Part shown: in pieces, positions 19,540 through 60,598 of the stretch
How the letters are laid out: each line of letters starts with the position of its first letter
How positions within the stretch are numbered: the first letter of the stretch is position 1
Assembly: GCA_000004695.1 (NCBI GenBank)
Contig: CM000154.2
Coordinates: 224,001-288,000 of the forward strand
DNA from: Dictyostelium discoideum
Taxonomy: Eukaryota
Reading direction: 5' to 3'
Length of the DNA stretch: 64,000 nt
Program-made: the position numbers and the translations under genes
Notes under the pieces: model-generated
What the model was told of the DNA's origin: nothing
Database searches by the model: none
Seen by the model: only the letters and a program-made list of their open reading frames with translations

Positions 19540-19883
19540 ATGAATAAAGAAATAGAAAATTTGGAAAATTATAATTATTTAAAAAGTTGTTTAGAATTAA
19601 TTGAAACAAAATATTTTAACCAAAAAGAAGAATTTCTGAATCAATTAAAACTAGCAAATTTAGAAACAATTAATAAATTATTATATGCAATAATTAGAGA
19701 AAACATTTTTGAACAACAAAAAAAAGAAGAAAAAGAAGATTTCAAATTAATTGAAAATGAAAATTATTATTTTATTTTTAAAACTAAAAATCAATTAAAT
19801 CCAATAATGAAATTAAAAATACCAATAAACCAAGTTTATAGTTTAAATAGATTTTCAATTTCGGATTTTCCAAGTTTAATAAC

Positions 19884-19977
<94 letters not shown>

Positions 19978-21846
19978 AATAATAATCAAGAAATAATACT
20001 TGATAATTGTTTTAATTTAATTGAGTTATTTAAAGAATCAACTATGGATTATAATGAAGAATATATAAATGAATATAAAAATGAAATTGAAAATAGCATT
20101 GGTAATCAAGCATTAATAAATACAATTTCAAAATTAAATCATAATAATATTAAAAAACAATCAATAATGAATCAATATAATTCAGTAATAGATTATGTAA
20201 ATAATCAAGATCATAGTTTTGATTCAAATTTATTCTATGAACAATTATACACAAAGGGTCATTTAACTCATACATCTCCAAAAATGAGAAAAGGTTTCAC
20301 ACCAATTCAAGTTTTAAATTACTCTTCTGAATTATCAAATTTTGTTAATTTACATTTCATTGCAATTAAAAAACAATATTCATTATCATCCTCTTCATCA
20401 TTAAAAATACAAAATACTAATAATAATTCAAATTATTTAAAAGATGATGATGATGATGATAATGATGAATATTTATTCAAATATTATCCAAATTCAAAGA
20501 AATCAATAATTGAATATATGAATAAAGTTTCAATCAATTTTAATGATTATAACTATCATTTAATTCATCCATGGCAAATTGAAAATATTATCCCAACACT
20601 ATTTAAAAATGAATTATCTCAATCAATTGTAGTTTTAATTCCAATTGAAATTGCATCAGTTTGTTCAAAGCCATTAATATCTTTAAGAACTGCTGTTATT
20701 TTCCCTGAATTAAGTGATGATAAATTAATGCCACATATAAAAGTACCAATAAGTATTAATATAACATGTGCTCTTAGAACAATATCATCACAATCAGCAA
20801 ATAACGGTCCAATATTTAGTGAAATCATTAGAGATATCTATAAAAGAGAGTATCAATCATTCTTTGGTAATGAAATTAATTTTCTATCGGAAACTTATGG
20901 TTGTTGGTTCAATCCATTGGATATTAATGATAAATCTATTAAACATAAATCAATTACAAATATTTGGAGAGAAAATCCAAATATTTTACTTGAAAATATA
21001 AACAATAACAATAATAAGAATAATAACAATCTAAAATATAAAGATCATTATAAACAACAAGTAATAGTTTCATGTTCATTATATTCCATCTCTCCAATCA
21101 CTAATAAATTAATCTTGTTTGAATTAATTGATGGATTTATAGAAAATAAACAAAAAGAAAAACAATTTATTGTTCAAAACAATAGTAACAATAATATTAA
21201 TAATAATTATAATAATGATAACAACAATAGCAAAGAATTAGTATTCAATTGGTTCAATTCATATATAAGTAAACTATTGACAGTAACAATTGTATTAATG
21301 AGTAAATATGGTATTGGATTAGAAGCACATTTACAAAATACATTATGGATTATTGATAGTGAAACTTTTGAACCTGTAAAATTAATTTGTAAAGATTGGG
21401 CTGGTTCACGTTTAAATTTAAAGAGATTATCTTCTCAATCAATTCAATATAATTATAAAGAAGGTTCTATCACTATTTGTGGCGGTGGTGAAGTTGATGA
21501 ATCTATAGAAATGTATAATAAAGTACAACATTCTGTTTTTAATAGTAATATTGGTGAACTAATATTATCAATTTCTAAATATTACAATATTATGGAAATC
21601 GAAATGTGGAAATCTGTATCTTTGATTTGTAAATCCATTTTTAATAAATTAAAATTGCAACACCTACAACAAAAACAAGAACAACAACACGAAAAAGATG
21701 ATCACTTTTTAAAACAACTACAACATGATGAAAATGTATTATTTTCAAAAAATATTGATGTAAAATCATTAACAAAAATGCGTTTACAAACTGATAATAA
21801 AGAAAATATTACAACTTCAATTATTAATCCATTATACAATTTATAA
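19540..21846 (+). CDS. IucA/IucC-family (NRPS-independent siderophore synthetase-like) protein with C-terminal FhuF-like domain, 768 aa, containing a 29-residue poly-Asn insert
   Basis: Family motifs seen in the translation: EQLYTKGHLTHTSPKMRKGF (the conserved EQSL..GHP.HP.PK.R.GF region); HIKVPISINITCALRTIS (ATP-binding K...TSS.RT segment); and a C-terminal ...EAHLQNTLWIIDSETFEPVKLICKDWAGSRL segment (FhuF-like H.QN...RD..G.R signature). Single exon. The (AAT)29 tract at 19888..19975 is in frame. Confidence 0.7.
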
Positions 21847-39391: not shown

Positions 39392-39556
39392 ATGAAAAAC
39401 ATTTTTAAAGATAAAAATATTTATATTTTATCAGTTGAGAATGATCAAAGAGATAAATGTAAATCTTATTTAATTTCAAAAAAAGCTTTGGTTGAAAAAA
39501 GATTTTCAAAAAAGGTAAATAAAAATATTTTAATATTTAAAAAAACAATACATTTC

Positions 39557-39594
<38 letters not shown>

Positions 39595-42500
39595 AACATA
39601 TTTCCATTTTTTTATTTTTATTTTTTTAAAGGTGAATATTATAATAACAAGTGAAAAAACTATTTTGGAAAATAAATTTCCAGTTAATACTGCAACCAAA
39701 TTGGGTATAGAGATAATTGATTATGAAACTTTATCAAGAGATATTGAAAGATTTATTAGAAAAACTCAACCAACATCATCAAATGGTTCAACATCAACAA
39801 CAACAACAACAACAACAACAACACAAAAAGGTCAAATTGTATCATTTAAACCAACTTCATCAACCTCAACAACAACAAATGTAATTAATACAACAACAAC
39901 ATCAACAACATCAACAACAACAATTGTTGATCCAATTATATCATTAATAGTACCACCATCAGGTAGTAATAATGGATCATTTCAAATTGCAATATTTGGA
40001 ATTGGATTTTTAGCAGGAGCAGGATTTAGAATTAAAATTGGTAATGATAATGGTGGTGGTGGTGTTTTTGCAAGTAATTATGAATTTCATTCAAGTACAT
40101 CAGTTTTATGTACCATACCAAACTTAAATATTAAATGTGGTCAACAACCAATTTATGCAAGTAATGATGGTGGTAAAACTTTTGGATTTCCAATTCAATT
40201 TTTATTCTTTGACACATCAATCCATAGAATACCAACAGCAAGAGAACAAGATGGTATGGTATTAAAGAGTCAATTGGATAATTTAAAGAGAGCCATTTCA
40301 AATATTCAAACTATGGAATCAATTCTAATGAGACGTATTTCATTATTGAATGGTAATCATGATGATAGTAAATCAATTGAACAGATTTTCATTCAACAAC
40401 AAAATTTCATTGAAAGTGGTGCATCACAATTATTACTTGGTAATGGTGGTACCACCGATCAATTGTTACAAAGTCTTGAGGGTTCAGAATATTCAAGTAC
40501 AAACGATGATGGTGAAAACGATCAATCAGACGACGATGACGACAATGAAGATGATGATGATTTCGTTGAAAAGAATTCAAATCAAGTTAAAGAAGAATTT
40601 TCAGAGAGAGAAATTAAAATATTTATTTCATCACCATTTAAAGATATGCAATTGGATCGTGACCAAATTGTAAAGGTCGTAATACCAAGAATTAGAAAAC
40701 TTTGTATTGAAAGGGACATTGTATTGAGTTATGTCGATCTTAGATGGGGTGTAACAAGTAATCAATCTGAACAATCCACTGGTTTAAGTATGTGTTTGAA
40801 AGAATTGGAGAAATGTAATATTTTAATTGGTTTATTTGGTGAACGTTATGGTTGGTCATCGCAAGAGAAACAAGATCCAAAATCACAACAATTACTTCAA
40901 TCAACATTAGATCGTGCAATTCAAGATTTCCCATGGGTAAAGAATTATCGTGATTCAAGTATCACTGAAATTGAATTTCGTATGCTTTTGAACCAAAGAC
41001 AACAACAAAGAAATGGTTTCTTTTATTTCCGTGATCCATACTATCTCGAGGAGGTTAGTCAAATGGATAAAAATAATTTCGTTTCAGAAGGTCAAAGATC
41101 AAAAGAGAAACTTGAGAAACTTAAACAAGAAATCATTAAATCACCCTTTAAATCATCGGAATATCGTCGTCCAACCAATTTATCAGATGTACTCTATGAG
41201 GATTTAGAGAAATATATTGATAAAAAATATCCATCTGGTAATTGTGAATTAAAAGGTTTTGAAAAAGAACGTTTCTTACATTCAGTTTTCATTAAAAATT
41301 TAACAAAAATTTATATTACAAATGAAAATTATTTTATGGAAATTGATACTTATTTATCAGGAAGTGCTACTAGTAGTGGTAGTGGTAATAAAAGTATTTC
41401 AATTGGTTCAAGTATTAATAGTGGACTATTATCATCTTTAAAAAATAAACCAGTATTTTTAATTCAAGGTGAAAGTGGTTCAGGTAAATCATCATTAATT
41501 AGTAATTGGTTAAAACAACATAAAGAACAACATCCAGAAGATTTAGTTGTATCACATTGGATTGGTGCATCACCAAGTTCAAATAAATTTACATCAATTT
41601 TAATTAGAATTATGAATGAAATTAAAAATCAAATTGAAATTGATCAAAAGATTGCCAATGGTGGATCAAATTCCTCATCGTCATCGTCATCATCAATGTT
41701 TTCAACCACTTCAACATCTTCTGTATCATGGTTACCAGAAATACCAGATGAAACATTTGAAAGTGAAAAAATTGTTTCAGAATTCCCACAATTTTTACAA
41801 TATGTAATGTCACATCCATCATTGAATGGTAAGAGATTAGTATTGTTAATTGATGGTTTAGATAAATTAGATCCAAGAGAGAATAGTCAAGAGTTAATAT
41901 GGTTCCCAAGAAATTTCCCTCATAATGTAAAGGTTATTGTTTCATCGATTCAAGGTAGTAGACAAAGTGAGGTTCTAAAGAAGAGAGGATCTCATATTCT
42001 TTCGATTTTACCATTCACTGAAGCTGAAAGAAAATCAATGGTACGTTTATACCTTCAAAAATATGCAAAGAAATTATCAGATCAACAAGAGATTGCAATC
42101 GCTATTTCAAAATCAACAACAAATCCAAGATTCCTTCAATTACTTCTCGATGATATTTTGGTATTTGGTGATTACGAACGTTTAAATGACCGTATTAAAA
42201 CTTTACTTCGTGCAAAGAATACAAGTGAACTCTATGAAATCATTTTAGACCGTATTGAAAAAGATTATGATCCAAAAGCAAAGGGTTTAGTAAGTGAATT
42301 CTTAAAATACATTTGGGCCGGTAGAAGAGGTGTTGAAATGTCTATGCTTTCAACATTACTCTTGAAAAAGAATATCGATCCAGCTGAATGGGGTTCATTA
42401 TTGGTATTGATGGAAGCTTATATCACTTCTTCATCGGGTGTTATCTCTTTCCTTAATGATGATATTTCAAAAGCTGTCGAAAAGAAGTATATTACAACTC

Positions 42501-44500
42501 CAAAGATTGGTATTGAAATTCATACCAATTTAGCAGAGGCTTTCGAACAATCTGGTGACTTAAATGAAAGAAAGGTTGAGGAATATCCTTATCAATTATT
42601 AAAGAGTGAAAATTGGGAATCATTAAAAAATACCTTAACCAATCTTTACGTATTCGATAAACTCTATACACCAAATCATAAGGTTGATCTCATCAATTAT
42701 TGGAATGTATTGGAGAAACAAACTAAACCACCAAAGAATGCTGCAGAAAGAGATGATCCAATACCATACAATTGTTCAAATGAATTTAAGGCAATCATTT
42801 CACGTTCATTCATTCAAGCATCTGGTTTGGTAATTTCCGATGTTTGGTTTAGAGTTGCATCGTTCCTTGAAGAGTTATCTCAATTTGATGGTGCCGAAGT
42901 ACTCTACAATAAATGTCGTGAACTTTATATTAACAATTCTCAAAATATTGAAGCTGCAAAAGTTGATCGTGCAATGGGTAGAATGTATCTAACAATGGGC
43001 CAAAATGATAAATCCGATAGTAAATTCAGATTGGCACTTTCAATCTACACAAAAGAAAGAGGTCAAGAAGATATTGAAGTTGCAATCACTCTTAATCTCT
43101 TGGGTACTCTTGCCACTAATAGATGTAAATTCGATGAAGCTAAACAAATTCTCAATCAAGCTATGAACATTTGTGAATCCAAATATGAAAGCAACGTTTT
43201 ACTCATTGCTGATATTGCCTATAGTTTGGGTTCAGTTTGTTTCGTTGAACCAAATCGTAAATTAGAGGTTGCTGAAGCTTACTTTGCAAGATCATTAGAA
43301 TTAACTGAATCAAAAGTTGGTGATATGGATGTTGCTTATGCTCGTATTTTAACTCGTTTAGGTTCATTGAATATTGAAAAGGATACCTATGCCGATGCAG
43401 AGGCATTCTTTAAAGCTGCCCTTAAAATCTATGAAGCTAGATTGGGTATTGATCATTCTAGAGTTTCTCAAATTCTTAGACATATGATTTCCCTCTATGA
43501 GGTTCAAGAAAACTATAAAATGGCTGAACAATGTTGTATCAGAGCTTTGGCAATCACAAAGAAAATCTATGGTAACTCTCATAATCTTGTATCGGCCACT
43601 CAAATCCGTCAAGCTTTATTATATAATTCAATGAATAGAAAACAAGATTGTCTCAATCTATTGAATGAAGTTAAAGTTACAAGAGAGAAAGAATTTGGTC
43701 CTGATCATAAACAAGTTAAACATATTATTGATTTAATTAAAGAAATTGATAAACCAATCGTACCAAAAGCTCCACCTCCACCACCTCCATCATCATCATC
43801 GCCATCTGCTTCATCACTTTTAATGAAATCAATTACTTCATTACCAATTGTAAATGGTCAAGCAGTTCTATCTGTTCCAAAACCACCAGTTTCCAGAGGA
43901 CCAAATGGTATCCCAATCCCACCACCACCTCCACCAACAATTAAATTGTACACAAACATGGTATCACTTCAAAGTGTTATGAAACAAAATGTTGGAAGAA
44001 TTCCAGTTGCTCAACCAACTTCATTCAATTCTCCAGTTCAACCACCTTCACCTCGTACTCAACAAGCTATTCAACAAGGTCAACAACAACGTCAACAAGT
44101 TCAACAACAACAACAACAAGTTCAACAACAAATGTCTCAAAAAGTTTCATCACTACAACAACAACCACAACAACAACAACAACAACAACCATCACAAGGT
44201 TATGGTAATCGTCAAAATACTCCATTATTCCAACAACCAATTTTCCAACAACAGTTCCAACAAAATCGTATACAACAACCACAACAACAACCACAACAAC
44301 AAGCTTATGTTGGTGATATGTTGGCTCAATTTGATCAACAAAAACTTAAACGTGTTCAAAATGCAAATGATCGTAGTGGTGCTTCTCAAATCGTTGAAAA
44401 TTTAATTGGTAAAAAGAAATGTAGTAAACCAGTTTCACTTGTAAATAAAGGTTATATGGAAGAATCAAATCAAATAGATATGGGTGCTCTATTTGATTAA
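39392..44500 (+). CDS. Large STAND NTPase: BRCT-like N-terminus, IPT/TIG domain, TIR-like (DUF4062-type) domain, NACHT P-loop NTPase, kinesin-light-chain-type TPR repeats, Pro-rich / poly-Gln tail with WH2-like motif; exons 39392..39514 and 39632..44500
   Basis: Walker A GESGSGKSSL. Walker B LVLLIDGLDKLD. Downstream TNPRFLQLLLDD helix. TPR blocks (AEAYFARSLEL..., AEAFFKAALKIYEARLG..., AEQCCIRALAITKKIYG...). The N-terminal of the NACHT is EREIKIFISSPFKDMQLDRDQIV...RDIVLSYVDLRWGV...CLKELEKCNILIGLFGERYGWS (TIR/DUF4062-like). IPT/TIG-like segment PIISLIVPPSGSNNGSFQIAIFGIGF...IPNLNIKCGQQPIYASNDGGKTFGFPIQFLFF. BRCT-like NIYILSVEND...KCKSYLISKKALVEKRFSKK | VNIIITSEKT...KLGIEIIDYETL is split by a 117-nt in-frame A-rich intron (GTAAAT...tttaaag) that the track reads through as KKKKKKKKKK. 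C-terminal PPPPPPSSSS...IPIPPPPPPT, poly-Q, ...QQKLKRVQ. Confidence 0.75.
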
Positions 44501-44884: not shown

Positions 44885-44970
44885 TTGTAATTTTGACCAT
44901 AGATGAACAAGATTCGAACCAATGACTCTGGATACGAAGTTCAGGAGTTTGAATTTCAGCAAAAAAAAAA

Positions 44971-45043
44971 TGTCAAGTCAGAGGATCGAACTCTGGACCT
45001 TAGGATTATGAGACCTACGCTCTACCAACTGAGCCAACCTGAC
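44971..45043 (-). tRNA. tRNA-Met (anticodon CAU, elongator-like), 73 nt, poly-T terminator; the nearest ex-B-like motif is about 100 nt downstream (about 44850)
   Basis: Minus strand GTCAGGTTGGCTCAGTTGGTAGAGCGTAGGTCTCATAATCCTAAGGTCCAGAGTTCGATCCTCTGACTTGACA. Acceptor GTCAGGT/ACTTGAC pairs with one G:T. T-arm CAGAG/TTCGATC/CTCTG. Anticodon loop CTCATAA. The A10 terminator is at 44961..44970. Confidence 0.8.
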
Positions 45044-45156
45044 ATGTTGATGTTTTTGAAAAAAATTTGCACGATAACATTTTACATCAGATCGAAAAAA
45101 ACAAACAACAACAACAATCTCTTTTTTTGATTATTTCATTTTTCATATAAAAAAGA

Positions 45157-45191: not shown

Positions 45192-46897
45192 GGAACCAAG
45201 TTAATTAGAAAATTTCCAGATTTTTAACTTTTTAAAGAAAAATAAAAAAGATAGAAAGAAAATAAAATGAAAATCACAAACAACACCACAAATATTAAGC
45301 AACACAAATGCCTACAAAAAATAAGCGAAATTGTGGATAAAACTCAATTAAAAAAAAAACAATTCAAATACGTCATAAACATCAATCACGAACCAGACGA
45401 TAAAATAAAAAAAGATTTAGAAAAAAGTTTGGACAAAAAAGATGTTTTAATCAAAAGTAATAATACATTCAAAATTCTCACAGACAGTATTAGTACAGTA
45501 ATCTATTTTGTAAATATGTTTGATGCAGAATTAAAAGGACAATTTATAACCACTATAAGACCAAAAAATATGTATACAGATTTTGATTGGTATAAATCAC
45601 TCACAGAAATAGAATGGGTAATAGAAAATGAAGGATGTAAACTAATTAAATCAGAAATTAAAGGCGAAACTCTAATTATCAAAACAGTGAAAAGAGTCGT
45701 AGAAGAATTTGACACTATCATTGAACTAGACAATCTAACATTAATTGGACACTCCAACAAAGGATGGAGAGATCAAACCTCATTACCAGAAAATCAAGAA
45801 GAAAACAAAAATAAAAAACAATCAGATGAACAACAACCACAATCTACATCAGAACAAATACCAAAACAAGGAAAAAGAACAATCATTATCCCACCAATCA
45901 CATCCTCATCTAATGATAAAACATTTATGGCCCTAGATGATACAGCTCAAAAGGTAATAGAAGCATCACTAGAAAACGTAGATGAACTAACAAGAATAGA
46001 GAATGAGATCAATACACAATCGATAAACAATCAAGAAATTAAAACAAAATCAGAAAAACCTATCGAACCACCATCTCCATACAATACACCAATAAAACAA
46101 CACGGCGAAACAAAGGGACTAACAACGGAAGAAAAACTTAGAGAGGCAAATGATATCTTCGACTTCACCAGCCCAAACACTGATGCAATAAGAAAAATAG
46201 AATTCCCACTTTCAATCCCTTCAAATCAATGGTTCTTCTCCTCTCCAATAAAACATATCATGAGTTTCAGCCCAACCTATGGTACACCATCGAAAATTAT
46301 CGATTCACCAAGTAAATTGTTAAACACACCAAAAAAGAAACAACAAGACAAAACAAACAAGACCAACAAAACACCAGTCAAACCAAAATTGGGTGAATAT
46401 GGACAAAAAAGCATAAAAACAAAAATGGATGAAGATATAGACAACTTCAACAAGGAAATTCTAAAACAAATCAATAAATCAAAAAACCCCACAAACACAC
46501 AAGACCAACAACACAACGAACAAAGTAAAGATCAGTTAGAAGACAAAATAAACCAGAAACTTCAAAAGGTAGATAAAAATCTACCCCAAATAAAACTATA
46601 AAGAAAAACACAATAAGAATAGGTGTTTGGAACGTCCAAGGATCCAACACCATCCAATCTGCCAGCATAATAAACACCGTTTTAGACAACAACAAGCTGG
46701 ACGCAGCACTTCTAACTGAAACAAATATAAAAACAAATAAAATTTACTCAATAAATCAACAATATAAAAACAAAATAACACACCACGCACCAATTGATAA
46801 AACAGGACAAGGGGTGTCACAAATCATCATCAACACCCGCAATAGAACTTCCTAAACATCTCAAAAAATACAATAATTCACTCAGTACTTTCTATAA

Positions 46898-47706: not shown

Positions 47707-50055
47707 TTATTGTGTGGTTGAAATTTTTTTAAATAATTTTTTATCAACTATTGGAAAAATGTGGTAGGGGTAAATATCGTTTTCATAAATTTCAGTCCTT
47801 TTTAAATTATTATCTGAAAAAATTCTAATCATTTCTAAATAATTTGGGTGTTTTAAAAGGGTTTTTTCATTGTTTTCAAAAAATTGGTAATTTGTACTAT
47901 GAGTAAATATTAATAACTCTTTTTCTTTTTGTTCTTGTTGTTCTCCCTTTTCTTTTTCGTTTTCATTTTCATTTTCATTTTCATTTTGATTTTTATTTTC
48001 ATTTTCATTTTCATTTTCATTTTCATTTTCATTTTCATTTTCATTTTCATTTTCATTTTTATTTTTATTTTCATTTTCATTTTCATTTTCATTTTTATTT
48101 TTATTTTTATTTTTATTTTTATTTTTATTTTTATTTTCTTGTAATAATGGAGGATAATTCTTTTCAAAAGTTGGTAAACCACGAATAATTAAAAATTTAA
48201 TTGAATCTGGTAATGATTGAGAATATATTTTTTGAGTATATTTTCCACCCAACTCTAAAAGAGTTAAAGATTGTGGAAAGTAATCTTTTTTTAATATCTT
48301 ATTAAAAGAAACACCAAAATATAATGATTTTAAATTATTTGGTAAAATTATAATTGGTTTTCTATATAAAATACTTGATTTTCGAGGATATAAAGCTTGA
48401 ATATATTCTTTTTGTCTTTCAATTAATAAAGAACTATCGATTGAATTTGTTAAAGATGTTGAAAAATCACCACTAATATTATCAATTAATAAAATTTCAA
48501 CAGTTGATGGTAATAATAAATCATTTGAAAGCATTCCATTAAATTCAACTTTTTTTAATTTTTTACAACAATCATCATCAGTTATAATCAAAGGTTTTGA
48601 AAAATTTTTACCAAATGATAAATTTGTTAAATTTGGTGGTAATTGGTCTTGGTAAACTATATCATTGAAATGTTCAACAAATTTTAATTTTTCAACTGAT
48701 GATGGTAAATATTGTAATTGTTGAGTACTAAAACTATGAAATGATTTTAAACCAAATGAAATTGAACCTTCTTTAATAATAAATTTTGGTGAAAGTCTTA
48801 ATGTTTTTAAACTACTTGGTAGCACACCTGGTTCAATGATTTGTGTTGATTCTCTATTATAATTTGAATCCAAATGACCAACTACAAAATAAAGTTTAAC
48901 TAAATTTTTTGAAAATACACCAACTGATAATTTTTGGTTCCAAAGAAAATCAAATTTTAAAATTTTAACACTATCTGGAATCAATGGTTCACCAGTGTTG
49001 TCATCTAAAAGTTTTTGATTAAAAATATTTTTAAAAACTAATTTATTTAAAGATGATGGAATTGAACCAACTTTTAAAGGTAAATTAAAAGCTGGGTTCA
49101 TTCTTAGTAAAGTTAATGAATTTGGTAATACATTTGGTTCAATTGATTGTTTAAATGTATGCCATTCACATGACTTTGTAAATTTTAAAGATTTCAATGA
49201 AGATGGTAATTGTTTTAATCCAATTGGTTTTGAAAAACATTCAGGTAATGTTAATTCTGTAATACTCGATGGTAAATCGCCAACTTTAAATTCTTGATCG
49301 AAATACCCATCATCATGAAATGATAATTTCGTTAGAGATTTTGGTAAACAGCCATTGCCATCGGTATTGCTTAATGGCGAATTAAATTGTTTATTAATTA
49401 ATAATACCTCCAATGAGATTGTATTTGATAATAGAAATAAATCACCAGTTGGTTCTGAAATATTAACTCTACCACCACTACCTAAATAAAGTCTTTTCAA
49501 AGTTGATGGTAAACTACCAACTTTTAACTCTGAACATCCATTATGATGTAGTTCCTCCAATCCCATTGGTAATAAACCAATTGTAATCTCATTTAAATTT
49601 TTTTTACCCCAATCTAAAATTTTCAAACCATTTGGTAATTTATTGATTTTAAATTGAAATAAATTATCAAATTTTAAACTTGTTATTGAATTTGGTATTT
49701 TAATTAAACCATTTGTAAACATTGATTGTAACTCTAATTGATTATCGATATAAAATCTCTCACTATCATTTCTAATTAATAATTCATTAATATTATTTGG
49801 TAAATAATTAATTTGGTTAAATAATTTCATCATTTTTTCATAATCTTTTTCTTTTTTTTTAAATAAAATTTCAATTGATTTTTGATTTTTAAATCCATTA
49901 TTACTTTTATTTAATAATTTAATATTATTATTACATGTTATAGTTTTTGTAAAATAATGTATTTTAATTATTTGAATAAATTTAATAATTTTTTTTTTTA
50001 AAAAAATATTTCTCCAAATTAAAAAAAACAATTTACTATTATCATTTTCATTCAT
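47707..50055 (-). CDS. FNIP-repeat (Dictyostelium LRR-like) protein, 782 aa, with internal (NE/NK)n tract
   Basis: More than 15 iterations of the about 22-aa FNIP unit (FNSPL/FNLPL/FNQKL/FSKPL...LP.SL..L.FG..FNQ). The hexanucleotide (TTCATT)n at about 47940..48130 encodes the NKNKNENENE tract in frame. Confidence 0.75.
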   Translation of the reverse strand: MNENDNSKLFFLIWRNIFLKKKIIKFIQIIKIHYFTKTITCNNNIKLLNKSNNGFKNQKSIEILFKKKEKDYEKMMKLFNQINYLPNNINELLIRNDSERFYIDNQLELQSMFTNGLIKIPNSITSLKFDNLFQFKINKLPNGLKILDWGKKNLNEITIGLLPMGLEELHHNGCSELKVGSLPSTLKRLYLGSGGRVNISEPTGDLFLLSNTISLEVLLINKQFNSPLSNTDGNGCLPKSLTKLSFHDDGYFDQEFKVGDLPSSITELTLPECFSKPIGLKQLPSSLKSLKFTKSCEWHTFKQSIEPNVLPNSLTLLRMNPAFNLPLKVGSIPSSLNKLVFKNIFNQKLLDDNTGEPLIPDSVKILKFDFLWNQKLSVGVFSKNLVKLYFVVGHLDSNYNRESTQIIEPGVLPSSLKTLRLSPKFIIKEGSISFGLKSFHSFSTQQLQYLPSSVEKLKFVEHFNDIVYQDQLPPNLTNLSFGKNFSKPLIITDDDCCKKLKKVEFNGMLSNDLLLPSTVEILLIDNISGDFSTSLTNSIDSSLLIERQKEYIQALYPRKSSILYRKPIIILPNNLKSLYFGVSFNKILKKDYFPQSLTLLELGGKYTQKIYSQSLPDSIKFLIIRGLPTFEKNYPPLLQENKNKNKNKNKNKNKNENENENENKNKNENENENENENENENENENENKNQNENENENENEKEKGEQQEQKEKELLIFTHSTNYQFFENNEKTLLKHPNYLEMIRIFSDNNLKRTEIYENDIYPYHIFPIVDKKLFKKISTTQ

Positions 50056-51302: not shown

Positions 51303-54300
51303 ATGGGTAATAATAATGAAGATGGTTTAAATAATAACAATAACAATAACAATAATATTGAAAATAGAAAAGTTAAATTAAATAATACAGGTGATGAAAT
51401 CCCATTTTCGATGGGTAATGCATCATCATCACCATCTGCACCTCCACCATACCAACCTTCAATACAACCACTATATCAACCACCAACACAAAATCAATTC
51501 TTACCACAATATCAACAACAACAACAACAACAGCAACAACATTACCAACCACAATATCAACCAATAAACAATATGAGTTATCAACCAATACAACAACAAC
51601 AGCAACAACAAAGTAATTTCCCACCAACACAATATCAACCAAATAATATGAATTATATGGCATCACCACAACCATTATTACAACCTCAAATTATGACTAT
51701 ACAACCAACAACATTTTCAAATTCTCAAACTACAACTACAACAACTTTATCAAATCAACCACTTCAAACTTTATATATTCCAATTGATTCAGAATTTTAT
51801 CCATCTTATACACCACAATTGTAAGTTTTTTATTATTTTTTTTTTAATTTTTTTTTTTTTAATTCTTTTTTTTTTATTTTTTTTTATTCCAAAATTATTT
51901 ATTAATTAATTAATTTTAAAATAGTTTATATAAAAAAGATGATGAAAGAACTTATGGTATTGGTACATCATTAAAAGATTCATCATTTAATGAAATGATA
52001 AATAATAAAATTACAAATATATTTATAAAAACAAGAATGATACCACAAGTTAATGATGATTTATTGAATACAATTGTTAATTGTAAAAATTTAGAACATT
52101 TAAATTTATCAGGATGTGTTCAATTTAGTTCAACATTATTCTCTAAACAAATTTCAAGATTGAATCAATTGAAATCATTGAATTTAAATGGTTGTCAACA
52201 AATTACCAATGATAATCTTTGCAAGATATCAAATTCGTGTAAACATTTAGAAGAGATTCATTTGAATGGTTGTAATAGAGTCGATGATCAGGGTATAGTA
52301 GATTTGGTTAGTAAATGTAAAAAGATTAAAATCCTATCAATGAGTGGTTTAAATCTTTTAACCGATAGATCAATGACAATGATTTGTCAAAAATTACAAG
52401 ATCTTCAATCACTTTGTATCAACCATATTCAATGGTTCACTGAGAAGTCTCTAATGTTGATTGGTAAAAAGTTTAAGAATTCCCTACGTTGTTTCTACGC
52501 TTATAATACATTGATCACTGATAGCGTACTCTCGGATATAGCAATCAATTGTTCATCACAATTATCGGTGATTAATGTCTCCAAATGTAAAAATATTACA
52601 AACACTTCAATAGCCACCATTGCGATCAATTGTGGTAAAATGCTAACTAAATTGTTTTTACAAAATATTGAATGTCTTTCAATTCATAGTATTTCATTGT
52701 TGGGTAAATACTGCACACAACTTACAACACTACGTTTGGATGGTTGCTTAAATCTAATGGATGATTCAATTCAATCATTACAACCATTGGAAAGGCTAAA
52801 GATTTTAAACCTTTCAAATCTACCAAAGATTAATGAAATCTCATTGATAAGAATTTTACCATCATTAAAAGACTTGGAGGAATTATATCTCTATGAGAAT
52901 CCACGTTTCTCTGATTTAACCATTAAACAATTATCAATTAGCAATCCAAGAATCACTTCATTACGTGTTGATAAAACAGTGTTCGTATCAGATGCTTCAA
53001 TTATACCATTTACCAATAGTGTCAGCTATTTAAGAGTTTTGAATCTATCTGGTTTACAATCGATTCATGACTCTAGTATTATGGCATTGGCTACCTCTCA
53101 AAAATTCATTCAAAAACTTTATCTATCAGGTTGTAAATCCATTGGCAATGATTCATTGTTTGCAATTACTGGTCATATGTCATCCTCTTTGGAAGTATTG
53201 AAAATTGATGATTCTCATCAATTCACAGAGGAGGCTCTATCATCAATTAGTCTATTAAAAGGTTTAAAAATTTTATCAATTTCTCATTGTGTCCATACAA
53301 CTAATAATACCATTGATTTGATTGGCTATAATTGTAGAGAGTTGGAACAATTGTACATGTGTAAATTACCAATGGTCAATGATGCAGTACTACCAGCATT
53401 ATTATCAAATCTTTGTAAATTAAAAATCCTTAGAATCGATGGTTGTGTAAATATGACCGATCGTTCATTGACTGGCATTCGTTTCCTCAATCGTTTATGT
53501 TTGGAAGTTTTCAATTGTTCCGATAGTAGAATTGGTTGTGGTGGTTTGTTAACAATTCTTCAACAATCTTCAATTCGTGAACTTTATGCATGGAATTGTG
53601 ATTATATTACTGATGATATCTTAAAAACCATTGCAAACGATGCTTCATCCATTCAAATCCTACGTTTGGATGGTTGTAAAAATATTAGTGACAAAGGTGT
53701 ACGTACATTAATTCAAAGATGTCCACTTTTACGTATTCTAAACATTTCCAATACAAAGAGTTCCGATGAAACCTTGCAAACCGTCGCTGGCTATTGCAAA
53801 CGTTTAAAGAAACTCTATGCAAATAATTGTACTAAAATCACCTCGTCCGGTATTTCAGCGATCGCCTATCAATGTAATGAATTGACCATTTTGAATGCTT
53901 CACGTTGTGCAAATATTACCGATAATGCAATCATTGATATCTCTTTGAAATGTAAACTTTTGAAACGTTTAATACTAAACTATTGTCCAAAGATTACCAG
54001 TCAAGCAATCATCAGAGTATCAGTCGGTTGTCAAATGTTAAAAGAGATCTCTTTGAAAGGTTGTACCAATTTGGATGAAATGGGTGTTCTCTCACTTTCT
54101 ACCTATTGCAAACGTTTACAATATATCGATTTCACTGATTGTCACTTGGTAACCGATCTATCGATACTTGGTATTGGTAGAGAATGTTTACTTTTGAAAT
54201 CAGTCATTCTCACTGGTACCGCTGCTCAAGATAATGGTGTCATTGAAATTTGTGTACGTTCAAATGTAAATATTTTAACTTTAGATCTGGAAAGAACTAG

Positions 54301-54445
54301 AATTTCTGATCGTGCTGTTCAAATCATTGCTCAAATGTGTCCTGCTATTAAAAATTTAAATCTTTTAAATACCCAAATTACTCCTCAATCAATTGATTCT
54401 GTAAAACATACTTGTTTCCTTTTAACAAATTTACAATCTAAATAA
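51303..54445 (+). CDS. Cysteine-containing leucine-rich-repeat (FBXL-type LRR_cc) protein with Q/P-rich N-terminus; exons 51303..51820 and 51925..54445
   Basis: Track ORFs 51303..51824 and 51995..54445 are joined by a GTAAGT donor at 51821 and acceptor ttttaaaatag at 51923/51924, in phase (..PQ-F-LYKKDDERTYGIGTSLKDSSFNEMINNK..). Exon 2 has about 25 repeats of the ...C..L..L.L.GC..ITD.... pattern of FBXL2/GRR1-type LRRs. Confidence 0.7.
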
Positions 54446-58087: not shown

Positions 58088-58350
58088 TGTAATAAAGCTT
58101 GTTAGCTTTATAAATATATAATTAATAATTATATAATTGAATAATACTTTGTTATCTTTATTTAATATTAGTTTATATTTATAATATTCAATATTGTTTA
58201 TAAAATTATTCTTTAGTATTTATATTATTTATAATGAGTTGACAGTATTATTATTATTATTATTATATTATTTAAATGTGTGTCAACTATAATTAGTAAT
58301 GTAATATGCATATTTAATATCTATTAATTTTATAGAGTAACTTTATTACA
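58088..58350 (-). mobile_element. Long terminal repeat (3' LTR relative to the minus-strand element), 263 bp, bounded by inverted termini TGTAATAAAG...CTTTATTACA. A polypurine tract AAAAGGGGGGG (plus 58353..58363) is immediately internal
   Basis: 5'-TG...CA-3' ends with a 10-bp terminal inverted repeat. The PPT abuts the LTR edge exactly as in Ty3/gypsy and retroviral elements. Confidence 0.6.
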
Positions 58351-58947
58351 TATCCCCCCCTTTTAGTTGAAAAAAATTTTTCAATCTTTTAATATAAAAC
58401 ACATCATGATTTTTAATATTATCCAATACTAATTTGAATTTTAAATCGCTAACTCTCTCGTGTACTTTGAAAAGACCTTCCCAAGATTTATTGAGCTTTA
58501 CTGGACCAACAGTGGATTGTAAATAGACATAATCTCCTACTTGAATATTTGAACGAGAAACTTTTTTATTAATTTGTGATAATTGGTCTTTACCAAGATT
58601 ATCCTTAATGAGACAAGGACGTTTGAGGTTATTATTTACAATTTGGGCGAAATTATGAGCAAAATCTAATCTTGATAAATTTGTACATGGATTTCTTATT
58701 AATGGTTGAATTGAGGTTATTTGTGATTTAATTATTGAATTCTCTGTTTGATTTAATGATATTGATTTTAATGGTAAATTCGATGTTATTGGTGAATCTA
58801 TTGGTTCTTGGAATAAGAATTCTGGAATATCGTAATCTATTGGTAGTTGTTCTTCAATAGTTGGATACGATTTGATTGATAGTATATGATGAGAATTAAA
58901 ATTTTCAATTAAATGATCAGTATCTGTTAATAATTCTGATTTTGATG

Positions 58948-58978
<31 letters not shown>

Positions 58979-60010
58979 TGAATAATCAGATACTGTTTTA
59001 AATATAGTTTGTATACATGGTTGGGTTTCTTTAGATATTAATTTGGTACCAACATTGAATTCAAGATTCTTAATGATCATTTCTTTAAAATCAATGACTA
59101 AATTTAATCCAATTATTGTATCAATGCCAAATATACAATCAATTGATGTATCATTATCTTTAACAACATTAACTTTAACTCTAGCGAATGCTTTACCTAA
59201 TTTAATTGTTGTGTTACTTATTCCAATGATTTTGATTTGATTATTTGATGCTGATTTAACAGAATATTGTTCATTTTCAATCTTTAATTTTAACTTTTTA
59301 GCAATACTTTCCCAAACAATAGTAAGTGATGAACCAGTATCAATCAAACCTCTAACATTTTTATTATTTATTAATAAAGCTGCATTCATACTATCTATTC
59401 CAATTGAATTAATTGTACTATTATTGACCATTGTAATTGAATTAGTTCTATTATTGTAATTGTTATTATTATTTTTATCTTTTGACCAACACTCTTGAAT
59501 TACATGACCTTTCTTTTTGCAATATTTACAAAATTTTGTGATTGAATTTACTTGATTTTGTGGTGCTTTATAAGGGGATGATTGTGGTGACATTTGTGGT
59601 GATCGATTATAATATTGATTTTTAAAAATTGGTGTTGAAATTTCTTCAGATTCAATTGATTGTTGTTCGTTTTGAGATGTAACATATTGAGGGGATGTTG
59701 CAGAATAACCAGAACCCGAACCTAGATATCTTTGATTACCAAATTCTTGCAACGTCTTTGCAACTAATTGACCAGTGTACATTGATCTACCTTTGATACG
59801 AATTGAACCATCTTCACAAGACTTTGCAATATCTATTGCTCTTTTTAATGATTTTGGTGCACATTTTGTAATTTTAATACCCAATTCAGTACCAACAGCT
59901 GAATAAAACAATTGTATTTTAAACTTTTCTGAAATATCAACTGCTGAACATTTTGATAGAAATTTACCAATTAATATATCTAATGTATTGTATTTATATT
60001 CTCCCAACTT
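58346..60010 (-). mobile_element. Internal region of an internally deleted Ty3/gypsy-type LTR retrotransposon (DGLT-A-like, tRNA-associated): Gag (retrotransposon-gag fold, CCHC knuckle CKYCKKKGHVIQECW), aspartic protease (LIDTGSSLTIV), then directly an integrase C-terminal segment (GDYVYLQ...WEGLFKV...HDVFYIKRLK). RT/RNaseH/IN core absent
   Basis: Track ORF 58346..60238. No YxDD/RT motifs occur anywhere in 630 aa. The N-terminal 42 codons (60112..60238) are antisense of tRNA-Gly and beyond the gap, so they are spurious. The ORF terminates inside the PPT/LTR start. Confidence 0.6.
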
Positions 60011-60111
60011 GNNNNNNNNNNNNNNNNNNNNNNNNNNNNNNNNNNNNNNNNNNNNNNNNNNNNNNNNNNNNNNNNNNNNNNNNNNNNNNNNNNNNNNNNN
60101 NNNNNNNNNNN
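60011..60111. other. Assembly gap (101 N)
   Basis: Run of n. Presumably hides the 5' LTR and the target junction with tRNA-Gly. Confidence 0.95.
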
Positions 60112-60120
60112 ATATAAAAA

Positions 60121-60191
60121 GCGTATGTGGTCTAGTGGTATGATGCATCCCTGCCACGGATGCGAACTGGGTTCGATTCCCAGCATACGCA
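60121..60191 (+). tRNA. tRNA-Gly (anticodon GCC), 71 nt; ex-B box GAACGTAGGTTCAATTCCC at 60225..60243
   Basis: GCGTATGTGGTCTAGTGGTATGATGCATCCCTGCCACGGATGCGAACTGGGTTCGATTCCCAGCATACGCA. Acceptor GCGTATG/CATACGC. Anticodon stem CATCC/GGATG with loop CTGCCAC. T-arm CTGGG/TTCGATT/CCCAG. The same layout as metazoan tRNA-Gly-GCC. Confidence 0.85.
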
Positions 60192-60598
60192 TAATTTTCC
60201 ATTTGTTCAATTTGTTCGATTATAGAACGTAGGTTCAATTCCCTAAAAAATCATGAGTCTGTATTTATATACAGAGTTGCACATCTCTAGAAAAACAATT
60301 TTATTTTTAATAATATAAAAAAACCTCTCAAACAAAGTCAAACCAGTAAAAAAAAAACCAAAAACAATCAAACAACCCAAACACTATTCAAAAATCAATT
60401 AAAAAAACAAATAATCAACAAACCATAATAAATGGAAACAATGTGGGTAGTTCAAACATTCCACTACAAAAATCCAGCCAAATTCCAATTTAAAAAAAAA
60501 AAATTTAAGAAAAAAGATACAATCGAGTTTTTTTTTTTTTTTTTTTAGTAATAAATTAAATAATTTTATTTTATTTTTATTTTATTTTTTTTTATTTT

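Follow-up and report, generated by a model that had tools for sequence, protein, structure and literature searches.

What does a social amoeba monitor with a protein that joins a predicted NAD+-cleaving domain to a NACHT-type P-loop NTPase and a long repeat arm? This question is raised by the gene DDB_G0287407, which is located in a stretch of 64,000 nucleotides (nt) of AT-rich amoebozoan DNA from Dictyostelium discoideum (assembly GCA_000004695.1, contig CM000154.2, positions 224,001 to 288,000 of the forward strand). This whole stretch is called the window below, and all positions are counted from its first letter. The gene corresponds to an open reading frame (ORF) of 1702 codons before splicing, from 39392 to 44500 on the + strand. 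A first-pass annotation, made from the letters alone, had proposed an in-frame intron of 117 nt at 39515..39631, which starts with GTAAAT, ends with AAAG, contains a long A run and splits a BRCT domain. Removal of this intron yields a product of 1663 amino acids (aa), and not of 1.7k aa as given there, that agrees in every residue, from end to end, with XP_637293.1 / UniProt Q54KD0, the "TPR repeat-containing protein DDB_G0287407" of D. discoideum AX4. The intron is further supported because the BRCT profile match passes the cut-off only once it has been removed. Exon 1 (39392..39514) encodes aa 1-41 with the first half of the BRCT domain, and exon 2 (39632..44500) encodes aa 42-1663 and the stop codon. 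As the spliced product equals Q54KD0, one and the same gene contains the intron together with BRCT and TIG, and the possibility that these N-terminal modules belong to a separate gene can be put aside. The gene and its intron are already present in the existing annotation, in which the function of the protein is uncharacterized, and the only mention of the locus found in the literature is unrelated to its function. In the following, residue numbers refer to the spliced protein of 1663 aa, and all features of the gene lie on the + strand.

The domain order of the protein is BRCT, IPT/TIG, DUF4062 (TeTIR), NACHT, TPR repeats of the KLC/NPHP3 type, and a Pro-rich tail with a WH2-like motif. This is the order that had been read from the sequence before, and it now has support from Pfam, from AlphaFold2 (AF2) models, and from fold comparisons; the profile searches for TIR-like DUF4062, NACHT, TPR, TIG, and BRCT all gave matches above the respective cut-offs. 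We are nearly certain of these domain assignments. With its layout of effector, NACHT, and repeat sensor, DDB_G0287407 is a STAND (signal transduction ATPase with numerous domains) NTPase. The reading that is developed below, and to which we give roughly even credence, is that the protein would act as an NADase switch that is activated by oligomerization and coupled to actin at its sensor end.

The NACHT domain (aa 640-850; 41426..42058) contains the Walker A motif GESGSGKS (aa 654-661; 41468-41491), the P-loop on which the earlier assignment had been based, and the Walker B motif LVLLIDGLD (aa 777-785; 41837-41863). It scored above the Pfam cut-offs of both NACHT (PF05729, 35.6 bits versus 26.7) and AAA_16 (36.4 bits versus 32.6). 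Residues 363-1095 were modeled by AF2 with a mean predicted local distance difference test score (pLDDT) of 82.9 and a predicted template-modeling score of 0.79, and a Foldseek search with this model placed Avs3, the archaeal Walker-type/AAA+ ATPases 2qen and 2fna, MalT, CED-4, Dark, and Apaf-1 on ranks 1-10. NRC4 and NLRP3 were also among the best fold matches, and ORC/Cdc6 and RFC ranked lower. The Walker region thus does not align to a non-STAND AAA family, the closest folds being those of Avs3, MalT, CED-4, Apaf-1, and NLRP3. Between the NACHT domain and the repeats lie helical and winged-helix modules (aa 851-1090; 42059..42778), which are helical in the AF2 model with pLDDT values mostly above 85. 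The orthologs match Pfam NPHP3_hel and NPHP3_N in this region; in DDB_G0287407 itself NPHP3_N stays below the cut-off (16.4 versus 24.8). The TPR sensor arm (aa 1091-1415; 42779..43753) is of the KLC/NPHP3 type, in line with the KLC-type repeats described before: it matched TPR_NPHP3 with 108.7 bits (cut-off 100) and TPR_12 with 93.9 bits in five stretches, as well as TPR_10. The Pfam scan of DDB_G0287407 found no LRR, CARD, or PYD domain, and no TROVE, VWA, or WD40 domain. The PADLOC and NCBIfam models yielded only a weak mad8 P-loop match and matches to generic TPR models, none of them specific.

The predicted effector is the TeTIR domain, a TIR-like NADase domain of the DUF4062 family (aa 364-575; 40598..41233), which is situated directly upstream of NACHT, whose P-loop is at aa 654. 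It reached 57.3 bits with DUF4062 (PF13271; cut-off 24.7), and a phmmer search matched it to the crystal chain 11gz_A, the TIR-like domain of human TEP1, with E=1.8e-24 over 176 residues. In the AF2 model it consists of five beta strands with helices between them. The TIR/DUF4062-like block of the first-pass annotation can therefore be assigned specifically to DUF4062/TeTIR. This family of TIR-like NADases was set out in two preprints of 2026, in which human TEP1 was reported to convert NAD(P)+ to ADP-ribose(-phosphate) and nicotinamide via E1008, with a specific activity that goes up with the protein concentration; according to the mutagenesis of TEP1, F902, R914, R942, C959, R976, and E1008 are needed (10.64898/2026.05.01.722283; 10.64898/2026.09.21.753143). 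The bacterial DUF4062 proteins Swarozyc and Evangelion are antiphage effectors that deplete NAD+, and the TeTIR-NACHT layout is common to human NWD1, NWD2, TTC41, and NPHP3; among these, NPHP3 is inactive and no longer has the catalytic Glu (10.64898/2026.05.01.722283; 10.64898/2026.09.21.753143). The fusion of a TIR-like domain with NACHT and TPR had been regarded as unusual at first, but with the description of TeTIR/DUF4062-NACHT-WD40/TPR proteins in these preprints it falls into a known class (10.64898/2026.05.01.722283; 10.64898/2026.09.21.753143).

For the comparison of the active sites, TEP1 numbering was obtained from the chain numbering of 11gz_A by adding an offset of 893, which agrees with every cited residue. 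The predicted catalytic glutamate of DDB_G0287407 is E489, which lies in SITEIEF (codon at 40973..40975), corresponds to TEP1 E1008, and is invariant in all 15 aligned homologs, eukaryotic as well as bacterial. Besides E489, seven of the eight other residues that were probed in the TEP1 mutagenesis are kept. Five of these are required in TEP1, namely F372 (F902 in TEP1), R384 (R914), R412 (R942), C429 (C959), and R446 (R976). The other two are S375 (S905), which lines the pocket, and W413 (W943), which had a modest effect in TEP1; R412, W413, and G414 form the RWG loop. The sole probed residue that differs is K378, at the position of TEP1 R908, and the TEP1 variant R908A kept considerable activity. 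Judged from this alignment, the TIR-like NADase active site is intact, unlike that of NPHP3, and it is likely that the TeTIR domain of DDB_G0287407 is catalytically active.

A second TeTIR protein is present in the same organism. The D. discoideum TeTIR "ddTEP1" is an active, Glu-dependent NADase (10.64898/2026.09.21.753143), and the D. discoideum ortholog of TEP1 is the vault-associated Q54CB5 (PMC13100048). Most likely, "ddTEP1" is Q54CB5 and is separate from DDB_G0287407. D. discoideum contains at least two NACHT proteins with predicted TIR-like NADase domains, DDB_G0287407 and Q54CB5. The species is commonly said to lack proteins that resemble NLR receptors (nucleotide-binding proteins with leucine-rich repeats), a view that is contradicted by two TeTIR-NACHT proteins.

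The connection to actin comes from the tail. It starts with a proline-rich segment (43766..43936) in which PPPPPP occurs twice (aa 1422-1427 and 1471-1476), and this is followed by a Gln-rich low-complexity spacer (44051..44308), recognized from the sequence and variable in length between strains, by a putative WH2-like actin-monomer-binding motif (aa 1598-1626, AYVGDMLAQFDQQKLKRVQNANDRSGAS; 44300..44386), and by an acidic/hydrophobic C-terminal motif that is conserved in Dictyostelia (...YMEESNQIDMGALFD; 44441..44497). In most of the orthologs with a complete tail the poly-Pro runs come before the WH2-like motif, and in many genera this motif is the one conserved island within fast-evolving Q/P-rich tails. 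A profile of the motif from 12 orthologs was searched against 177,635 distinct PDB sequences. The sole matches with E<0.1 were the WH2 motifs of MIM (2d1k_C, E=0.013) and of WIP (2a41_C, E=0.045), both of which are WH2 peptides that were crystallized with actin. The alignment extends through DMLxxI..LKK...DRS: the family profile aligns to "DMLNAIRRGVKLKKTTTNDRSAP" of MIM and to "NALLSDISKGKKLKKTVTNDRS" of WIP, and shares with the WH2 motifs of WIP/verprolin and MIM an amphipathic stretch, followed by LK(K/R)(V/T) and then by ...DRS. The poly-Pro stretches ahead of the motif are likewise found in WIP and WASP. The PPPPPP runs and the Q-rich stretch noted earlier were thus seen again, and the WH2-like motif was recovered by way of a marginal profile match to MIM/WIP. 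On these grounds, it is somewhat probable that the tail of DDB_G0287407 binds monomeric actin (G-actin), and we infer that in D. discoideum the tail would bind monomeric or profilin-bound actin.

The end of the tail differs among the groups. The orthologs of D. purpureum, Tieghemostelium, Cavenderia, Polysphondylium, and Synstelium end in sequences like YMEESNQIDMGALFD, and a "GWWKQNY"-type motif was observed after the WH2-like segment in Cavostelium and environmental members (P0016, P0017, P0018, P0020, P0024, and P0025). No identifiable match was obtained for either the "GWWKQNY"-type motif or the dictyostelid YMEESNQIDMGALFD end.

In two orthologs, a whole actin is present at the same end of the protein. 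The ortholog P0015 of Balamuthia mandrillaris carries a C-terminal Pfam Actin domain (449 bits, aa 1440-1809) with 83.6% identity to Acanthamoeba actin. The ortholog P0021 of Diphylleia rotans also has a C-terminal Pfam Actin domain (436 bits, aa 1493-1862; 68.6% identity to Acanthamoeba actin), upstream of which poly-Pro and a strongly WASP-like WH2-type motif, NILSELQDGIRLNKQVNIADRS, are located. On the Balamuthia contig JAVKOQ020000593.1 (8589-10303) the last TPR exon is followed by an actin exon that has no separate ATG, and the canonical GT..AG intron between the two preserves the frame; the Diphylleia fusion is one ORF of a Trinity transcript. The fused actin of Balamuthia contains the replacements Q137T, H161Y, and R177G, and that of Diphylleia contains N111S and H161T. 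In established actin biochemistry, these residues serve ATP hydrolysis and phosphate release; the replacements of the otherwise near-canonical fused actins are concentrated there, which suggests that these actins are ATPase-impaired and specialized. By their sequences, they are diverged paralogs and not housekeeping actins, and the fusions look genuine. An origin of the Balamuthia fusion from the erroneous joining of neighboring genes was considered and is unlikely, in view of the missing start codon, the in-frame GT..AG intron, and the divergence of the actin paralog.

In STAND proteins, the sensor side is the C-terminal side of the NTPase. Because WH2 and poly-Pro, and in two cases a whole actin, sit at this sensor end, actin is in our view the strongest candidate for the partner being monitored. 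That the state of actin is itself the sensed input is a further step, which we propose only tentatively.

The N-terminal head adds a possible dimerization module. The BRCT domain (aa 1-88; 39392..39772, interrupted by the intron) is conserved in the orthologs and scored 28.5 bits with PF00533 (cut-off 21.3) after splicing, compared with E=0.76 for the unspliced sequence. An AF2 model of the head (residues 1-300), for which 14 orthologs served as input, shows the order beta-alpha-beta-beta-alpha-alpha-beta-alpha with block-mean pLDDT values of 84-94 over aa 1-80, and the Foldseek search against the PDB matched this fold to the BRCT domain of Dbf4. A Thr/Ser-rich linker follows (aa 89-139; 39773..39925), which is predicted to be disordered (pLDDT below 50 over aa 89-137) and is length-polymorphic; between five strains, 11 of its sites vary and 20 columns contain indels. 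The immunoglobulin-like IPT/TIG domain (aa 140-235; 39926..40213) scored 22.4 bits with PF01833 (cut-off 20.9) and is all-beta in the model with a pLDDT of about 90. Its best fold match in the PDB was the IPT/TIG domain of EBF1 (template-modeling score 0.81, root-mean-square deviation 2.0 A), and EBF3, the dimerization domains of NF-kB and NFAT, and the DBB domain of BCAP were also among the fold matches of the head. After the TIG domain, the model contains a long helix (aa 244-281; 40238..40351) with a sequence that is kept in the orthologs, and the top fold match of TIG plus helix was the EBF3 structure "IPT/TIG and HLHLH". The helix is a probable dimerization or coiled-coil element and, by analogy with EBF and NF-kB, the TIG-plus-helix module probably dimerizes. 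More speculatively, the single BRCT domain might bind a phospho- or ADP-ribose-type ligand. An acidic low-complexity linker (aa 282-360; 40352..40588), recognized from the sequence and variable among strains, completes the head. The combination of TIG and TIR is also known from BCAP, a TIR adaptor in which a TIG-like DBB dimerization module adjoins the TIR domain, so that this pairing recurs in an animal innate-immune adaptor.

Taken together, these features could be combined in the following way. In the resting state, the TPR arm would keep the NACHT domain closed and autoinhibited, as in Apaf-1, NLRs, and MalT, while the TIG-plus-helix module would pre-dimerize the protein in a manner analogous to EBF and NF-kB. 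The TPR arm and the tail would be coupled to monomeric actin or profilin-actin through WH2 and poly-Pro. A change at this end, in the bound actin or through a ligand of the TPR arm, would lead to nucleotide exchange and oligomerization of the NACHT domain, and the TeTIR domains clustered in this way would hydrolyze NAD+. The output would be a local or global loss of NAD+ or an ADP-ribose signal, and cell death, arrest, or a control of the cytoskeleton or of metabolism are its possible meanings. The functional logic would be like that of plant TNLs (TIR-NB-ARC-LRR receptors) and SARM1, in which a TIR-type NAD+-cleaving effector is activated by proximity in an oligomer.

Several points weigh against this reading. 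The significance of the WH2 profile matches is marginal (E=0.013 and 0.045), and among the 15 tail segments scanned with Pfam WH2 (PF02205), of which only two were matched, both below the cut-off, the D. discoideum motif gave no match. No actin domain is present in the D. discoideum protein itself, and the Pyxidicula ortholog lacks a tail altogether. The dimer model of the TIG-plus-helix module is drawn from analogy alone, and to place actin at the input, rather than to view it as a localization device or as an output, is pure inference. As to the effector, the full-length human proteins NWD1, NWD2, and NPHP3 showed no activity in vitro, and the same is true of three prokaryotic TeTIRs (10.64898/2026.05.01.722283; 10.64898/2026.09.21.753143). 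An intact site is no guarantee of activity, because most of the inactive TeTIR proteins retain the Glu.

The alternative that survives best is an NLR-like immune receptor, in which the TPR arm binds a molecule of a pathogen, the oligomer fires the NADase, and the infected amoeba is killed or arrested, on the model of abortive infection, plant TNLs, bacterial Avs proteins, and Swarozyc. We regard this alternative as unlikely, although the architecture of effector, NACHT, and repeats speaks for it, the antiphage protein Avs3 is the best structural match, and bacterial DUF4062 proteins are antiphage NADase effectors. The phylogeny of the core also counts in its favor. A neighbor-joining tree was calculated from 510 TeTIR-NACHT columns (Kimura distances, 100 bootstraps) with a set of proteins that did not include NPHP3, TTC41, and Q54CB5. 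In this tree, the clade of BRCT-TIG proteins is monophyletic in 100 of 100 bootstraps, and it groups with bacterial DUF4062-NACHT-TPR proteins, again in 100 of 100. The TeTIR-NACHT region of D. discoideum is 35-40% identical to the bacterial proteins, versus 23-28% to TEP1s and an NWD1-like protein, and a query of 660 aa with the TeTIR-NACHT-helical core was matched by the bacterial proteins over 100% of its length with 30-36% identity. These proteins are the nearest sequence relatives of the core and have the same tripartite layout, but lack the BRCT and TIG domains and the helix. They begin at the TeTIR domain, with its motif at residues 14-21, and therefore the BRCT-TIG head is a eukaryotic accretion. 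Swarozyc and Evangelion are less similar in layout, as they combine DUF4062 with other auxiliary regions and not with NACHT-TPR as in DDB_G0287407.

The distribution and the variation of the gene speak against such a receptor. The full architecture of BRCT, TIG, helix, TeTIR, NACHT, TPR, and tail is found in Dictyostelia (D. citrinum, D. firmibasis, D. purpureum, Tieghemostelium, Polysphondylium, Cavenderia, and Synstelium), in other Amoebozoa (Pelomyxa, Balamuthia, Cavostelium, Rhizamoeba, and, with the tail absent, Pyxidicula), in the CRuMs flagellate Diphylleia, and on several environmental contigs. A profile search with the BRCT-TIG-helix head, which was dominated by giant multi-TIG proteins, returned about ten single-stretch members of the family in the top 150. 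The same architecture was thus kept from Dictyostelia to Diphylleia, and the homolog search retrieved no second close paralog in D. discoideum, which argues against a lineage-specific expansion. When five isolates of D. discoideum or D. cf. discoideum were compared, just 1 of 240 sites was variable in the TeTIR domain, 4 of 240 in the helical domains, and 6 of 325 in the TPR arm, and most substitutions and indels were found in the low-complexity linkers and the tail. Accordingly, the sensor carries no sign of diversifying selection in these isolates. The pattern points to purifying selection on effector and sensor alike, unlike that expected for an arms-race receptor. The PADLOC models gave nothing specific for this protein and, to our knowledge, TEP1, NWD1, and NPHP3 have not been established as pathogen receptors.

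Of the original designation as an immune-receptor-like STAND protein, the STAND layout has thus stood, whereas "immune receptor" is an analogy only, in view of the near-invariant sensor and of a homolog search that retrieved no close paralog. The likeness to canonical NLRs did not hold: DDB_G0287407 has TPR instead of LRR repeats, neither CARD nor PYD, and a predicted TeTIR domain as effector, and by its sequence it is not a canonical NLR. Plant TNLs differ in the TIR subfamily, which is TeTIR here, in having NB-ARC instead of NACHT, and in having LRR instead of TPR. From the domain matches, DDB_G0287407 is assigned to the TeTIR/DUF4062 family and to the NACHT clade of STAND proteins. With TEP1 it has in common the TeTIR domain directly upstream of NACHT and the C-terminal repeats, as well as the catalytic Glu, the RWG loop, and the required F, R, R, C, and R. 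TEP1 has a TROVE/VWA N-terminus and WD40 repeats, neither of which is present in DDB_G0287407, where TPR repeats are found instead; the identity in TeTIR-NACHT is just 26-28%, and the two proteins belong to separate clades. On this comparison, DDB_G0287407 is not the ortholog of TEP1.

A second alternative is a non-enzymatic scaffold similar to NPHP3, in which the NACHT-TPR module assembles a structural platform, the tail recruits profilin-actin and G-actin to promote or organize the assembly of actin, and the role of the TeTIR domain is confined to interaction or to nucleotide sensing. The TeTIR-NACHT-helical-TPR layout of NPHP3 and TTC41 is the same as that of DDB_G0287407, the TPR_NPHP3 score (108.7 bits) and the NPHP3_N and NPHP3_hel matches in the orthologs fit such a scaffold, and so do the housekeeping-like conservation and the absence of NADase activity in purified full-length NPHP3, NWD1, and NWD2. 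In addition, poly-Pro followed by WH2 is typical of the actin-assembly factors WASP, WIP, and VASP. We nevertheless give little credence to this alternative, since E489 and every other residue that is essential in TEP1 are kept in all orthologs, which is hard to explain without catalysis, and since inspection of the tail revealed neither an Arp2/3-binding C/A region nor tandem WH2 motifs, features required for a nucleator. NPHP3 differs in that it lacks the catalytic Glu and is inactive, whereas DDB_G0287407 retains this residue. NPHP3 is targeted to cilia by N-myristoylation at Gly2. This glycine is absent in DDB_G0287407 (N-terminus MKNIF), and Dictyostelium is, as far as we know, without cilia. 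On sequence grounds, orthology of DDB_G0287407 to NPHP3 is not demonstrable.

A third alternative is that the likeness of the tail to WH2 is fortuitous and caused by its low complexity, and that the actin fusions are artefacts, which would leave a plain TeTIR-NACHT-TPR STAND protein with a disordered tail. This also seems quite improbable to us. The lack of a Pfam WH2 match in D. discoideum would agree with it, as would the scores of two orthologs below the cut-off of 23.1 bits (D. purpureum, 14.7; the environmental P0020, 16.8). In this respect the Dictyostelia motif differs from the WH2 motifs of WIP and MIM, and its helix part is poorly conserved. When the tails of Diphylleia and D. discoideum were searched as single sequences against the PDB with phmmer, only spurious poly-P/poly-Q matches were returned. 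Furthermore, dubious N-terminal fusions are present in other models of the family: among the dictyostelid EukProt models, P0011 has an N-terminal Rab/Ras-like GTPase and P0012 has an N-terminal Cdc20-like WD40 region, located ahead of the BRCT domain or instead of it, and both are probably fusions with neighboring genes in automatic annotation. However, a chance likeness would not explain that the motif is one conserved island across many genera, or that the top two matches of its profile among 177,635 sequences are genuine WH2 peptides from co-crystals with actin. The actin fusion was found independently in a genome annotation and in the transcriptome of a distant species, and the fused actins are diverged at hydrolysis-site residues and do not represent housekeeping actin.

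The switch coupled to actin could also be read in a more specific way, as a death or alarm switch that guards actin. The bait actin would be held non-covalently by WH2 and poly-Pro as a monomer in Dictyostelium, and would be covalently fused in Balamuthia and Diphylleia, in the form of an actin with changed hydrolysis-site residues. Its modification, cross-linking, sequestration, or stripping, caused by an attack of bacterial toxins or effectors or by a collapse of the monomer pool, would be the trigger for NACHT oligomerization and NAD+ cleavage. We put this version forward with considerable reserve, and its probability is low. The actin that is appended to the sensor end in two orthologs resembles the arrangement in integrated-decoy plant NLRs; D. 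discoideum has only the WH2-like motif at this position, and the actin itself is carried by Balamuthia and Diphylleia. If the version is true, it would represent effector-triggered protist immunity in the style of an "integrated decoy" and would provide the first proposed ligand for a TeTIR-NACHT STAND protein.

No mention of a WH2-like motif in such a position, at the C-terminal end of a STAND ATPase, was found in the literature consulted, and a search for NACHT together with actin and "integrated decoy" returned nothing relevant. The terms "BRCT" and, for the protein, "actin" do not occur in the texts of the two preprints that described the family (10.64898/2026.05.01.722283; 10.64898/2026.09.21.753143). 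The BRCT-TIG head, the recurring tail with WH2 and poly-Pro, the actin fusions, and the affinity to bacterial DUF4062-NACHT-TPR proteins thus appear to be undescribed.

The genomic neighborhood contains other genes of some interest. The upstream genes encode a methylcrotonyl-CoA carboxylase, an ankyrin protein, a RabGAP, an IucA/IucC-like protein, Mlh1, TatD, and an LMBR1-like protein. The IucA/IucC-like gene is an ORF of 768 aa (19540-21846, +) in which an IucA/IucC siderophore-synthetase domain and a FhuF-like domain are found; enzymes of this bacterial type are unusual in a eukaryote, and the gene may stem from an old horizontal transfer. Downstream of DDB_G0287407, at a distance of 470 bp from the stop codon, follows a tRNA-Met gene (44970-45044, -). 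About 220 bp past its 5' side starts an ORF of 444 aa without a Pfam match (45267-46601, +), which may be ORF1 of a tRNA-targeted non-LTR (long terminal repeat) retroelement. Genes for an FNIP-repeat protein and an LRR protein, in this order, are found at 47707-50055 (-) and 51995-54445 (+). The LRR protein of 816 aa has repeats that are weakly similar to plant LRRs of the RPS2 type; it lacks an NTPase domain, and a link to the STAND gene is not evident. A retroviral-type gag-aspartyl protease ORF (58346-60238, -) overlaps or abuts a tRNA-Gly(GCC) gene (60121-60191, +) and is consistent with a fragment of a tRNA-targeted LTR retroelement, and an ABCG transporter gene lies further downstream in the window. 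tRNA-associated and tRNA-targeted retroelements are normal in Dictyostelium. The first-pass annotation had grouped the gene with an adjacent retroelement and a tRNA-rich accessory region, but a functional "system" of this kind can be discarded, as the neighbors represent an ordinary Dictyostelium chromosome with housekeeping genes and nothing ties them to DDB_G0287407.

For the family as a whole, the sensor end is the part of interest, because we know of no TeTIR/DUF4062-NACHT protein (TEP1, NWD1/2, TTC41, or NPHP3) for which the sensed ligand has been established. The amoebozoan/CRuMs lineage combines a complete active site with an actin-related sensor end, and represents a "Rosetta-stone" fusion that points to actin as partner or input. 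D. discoideum offers routine knockouts, live imaging of actin, and bacterial infection models, so that the hypothesis of a link between actin state and NAD+ is directly testable. Should the actin hypothesis fail, the gene still represents a well-defined member, with plausible catalysis, of a class that was described only recently. If it is true, DDB_G0287407 would link a surveillance of the cytoskeleton to NAD+ metabolism outside of animals and plants, and it may guide work on the human paralogs.

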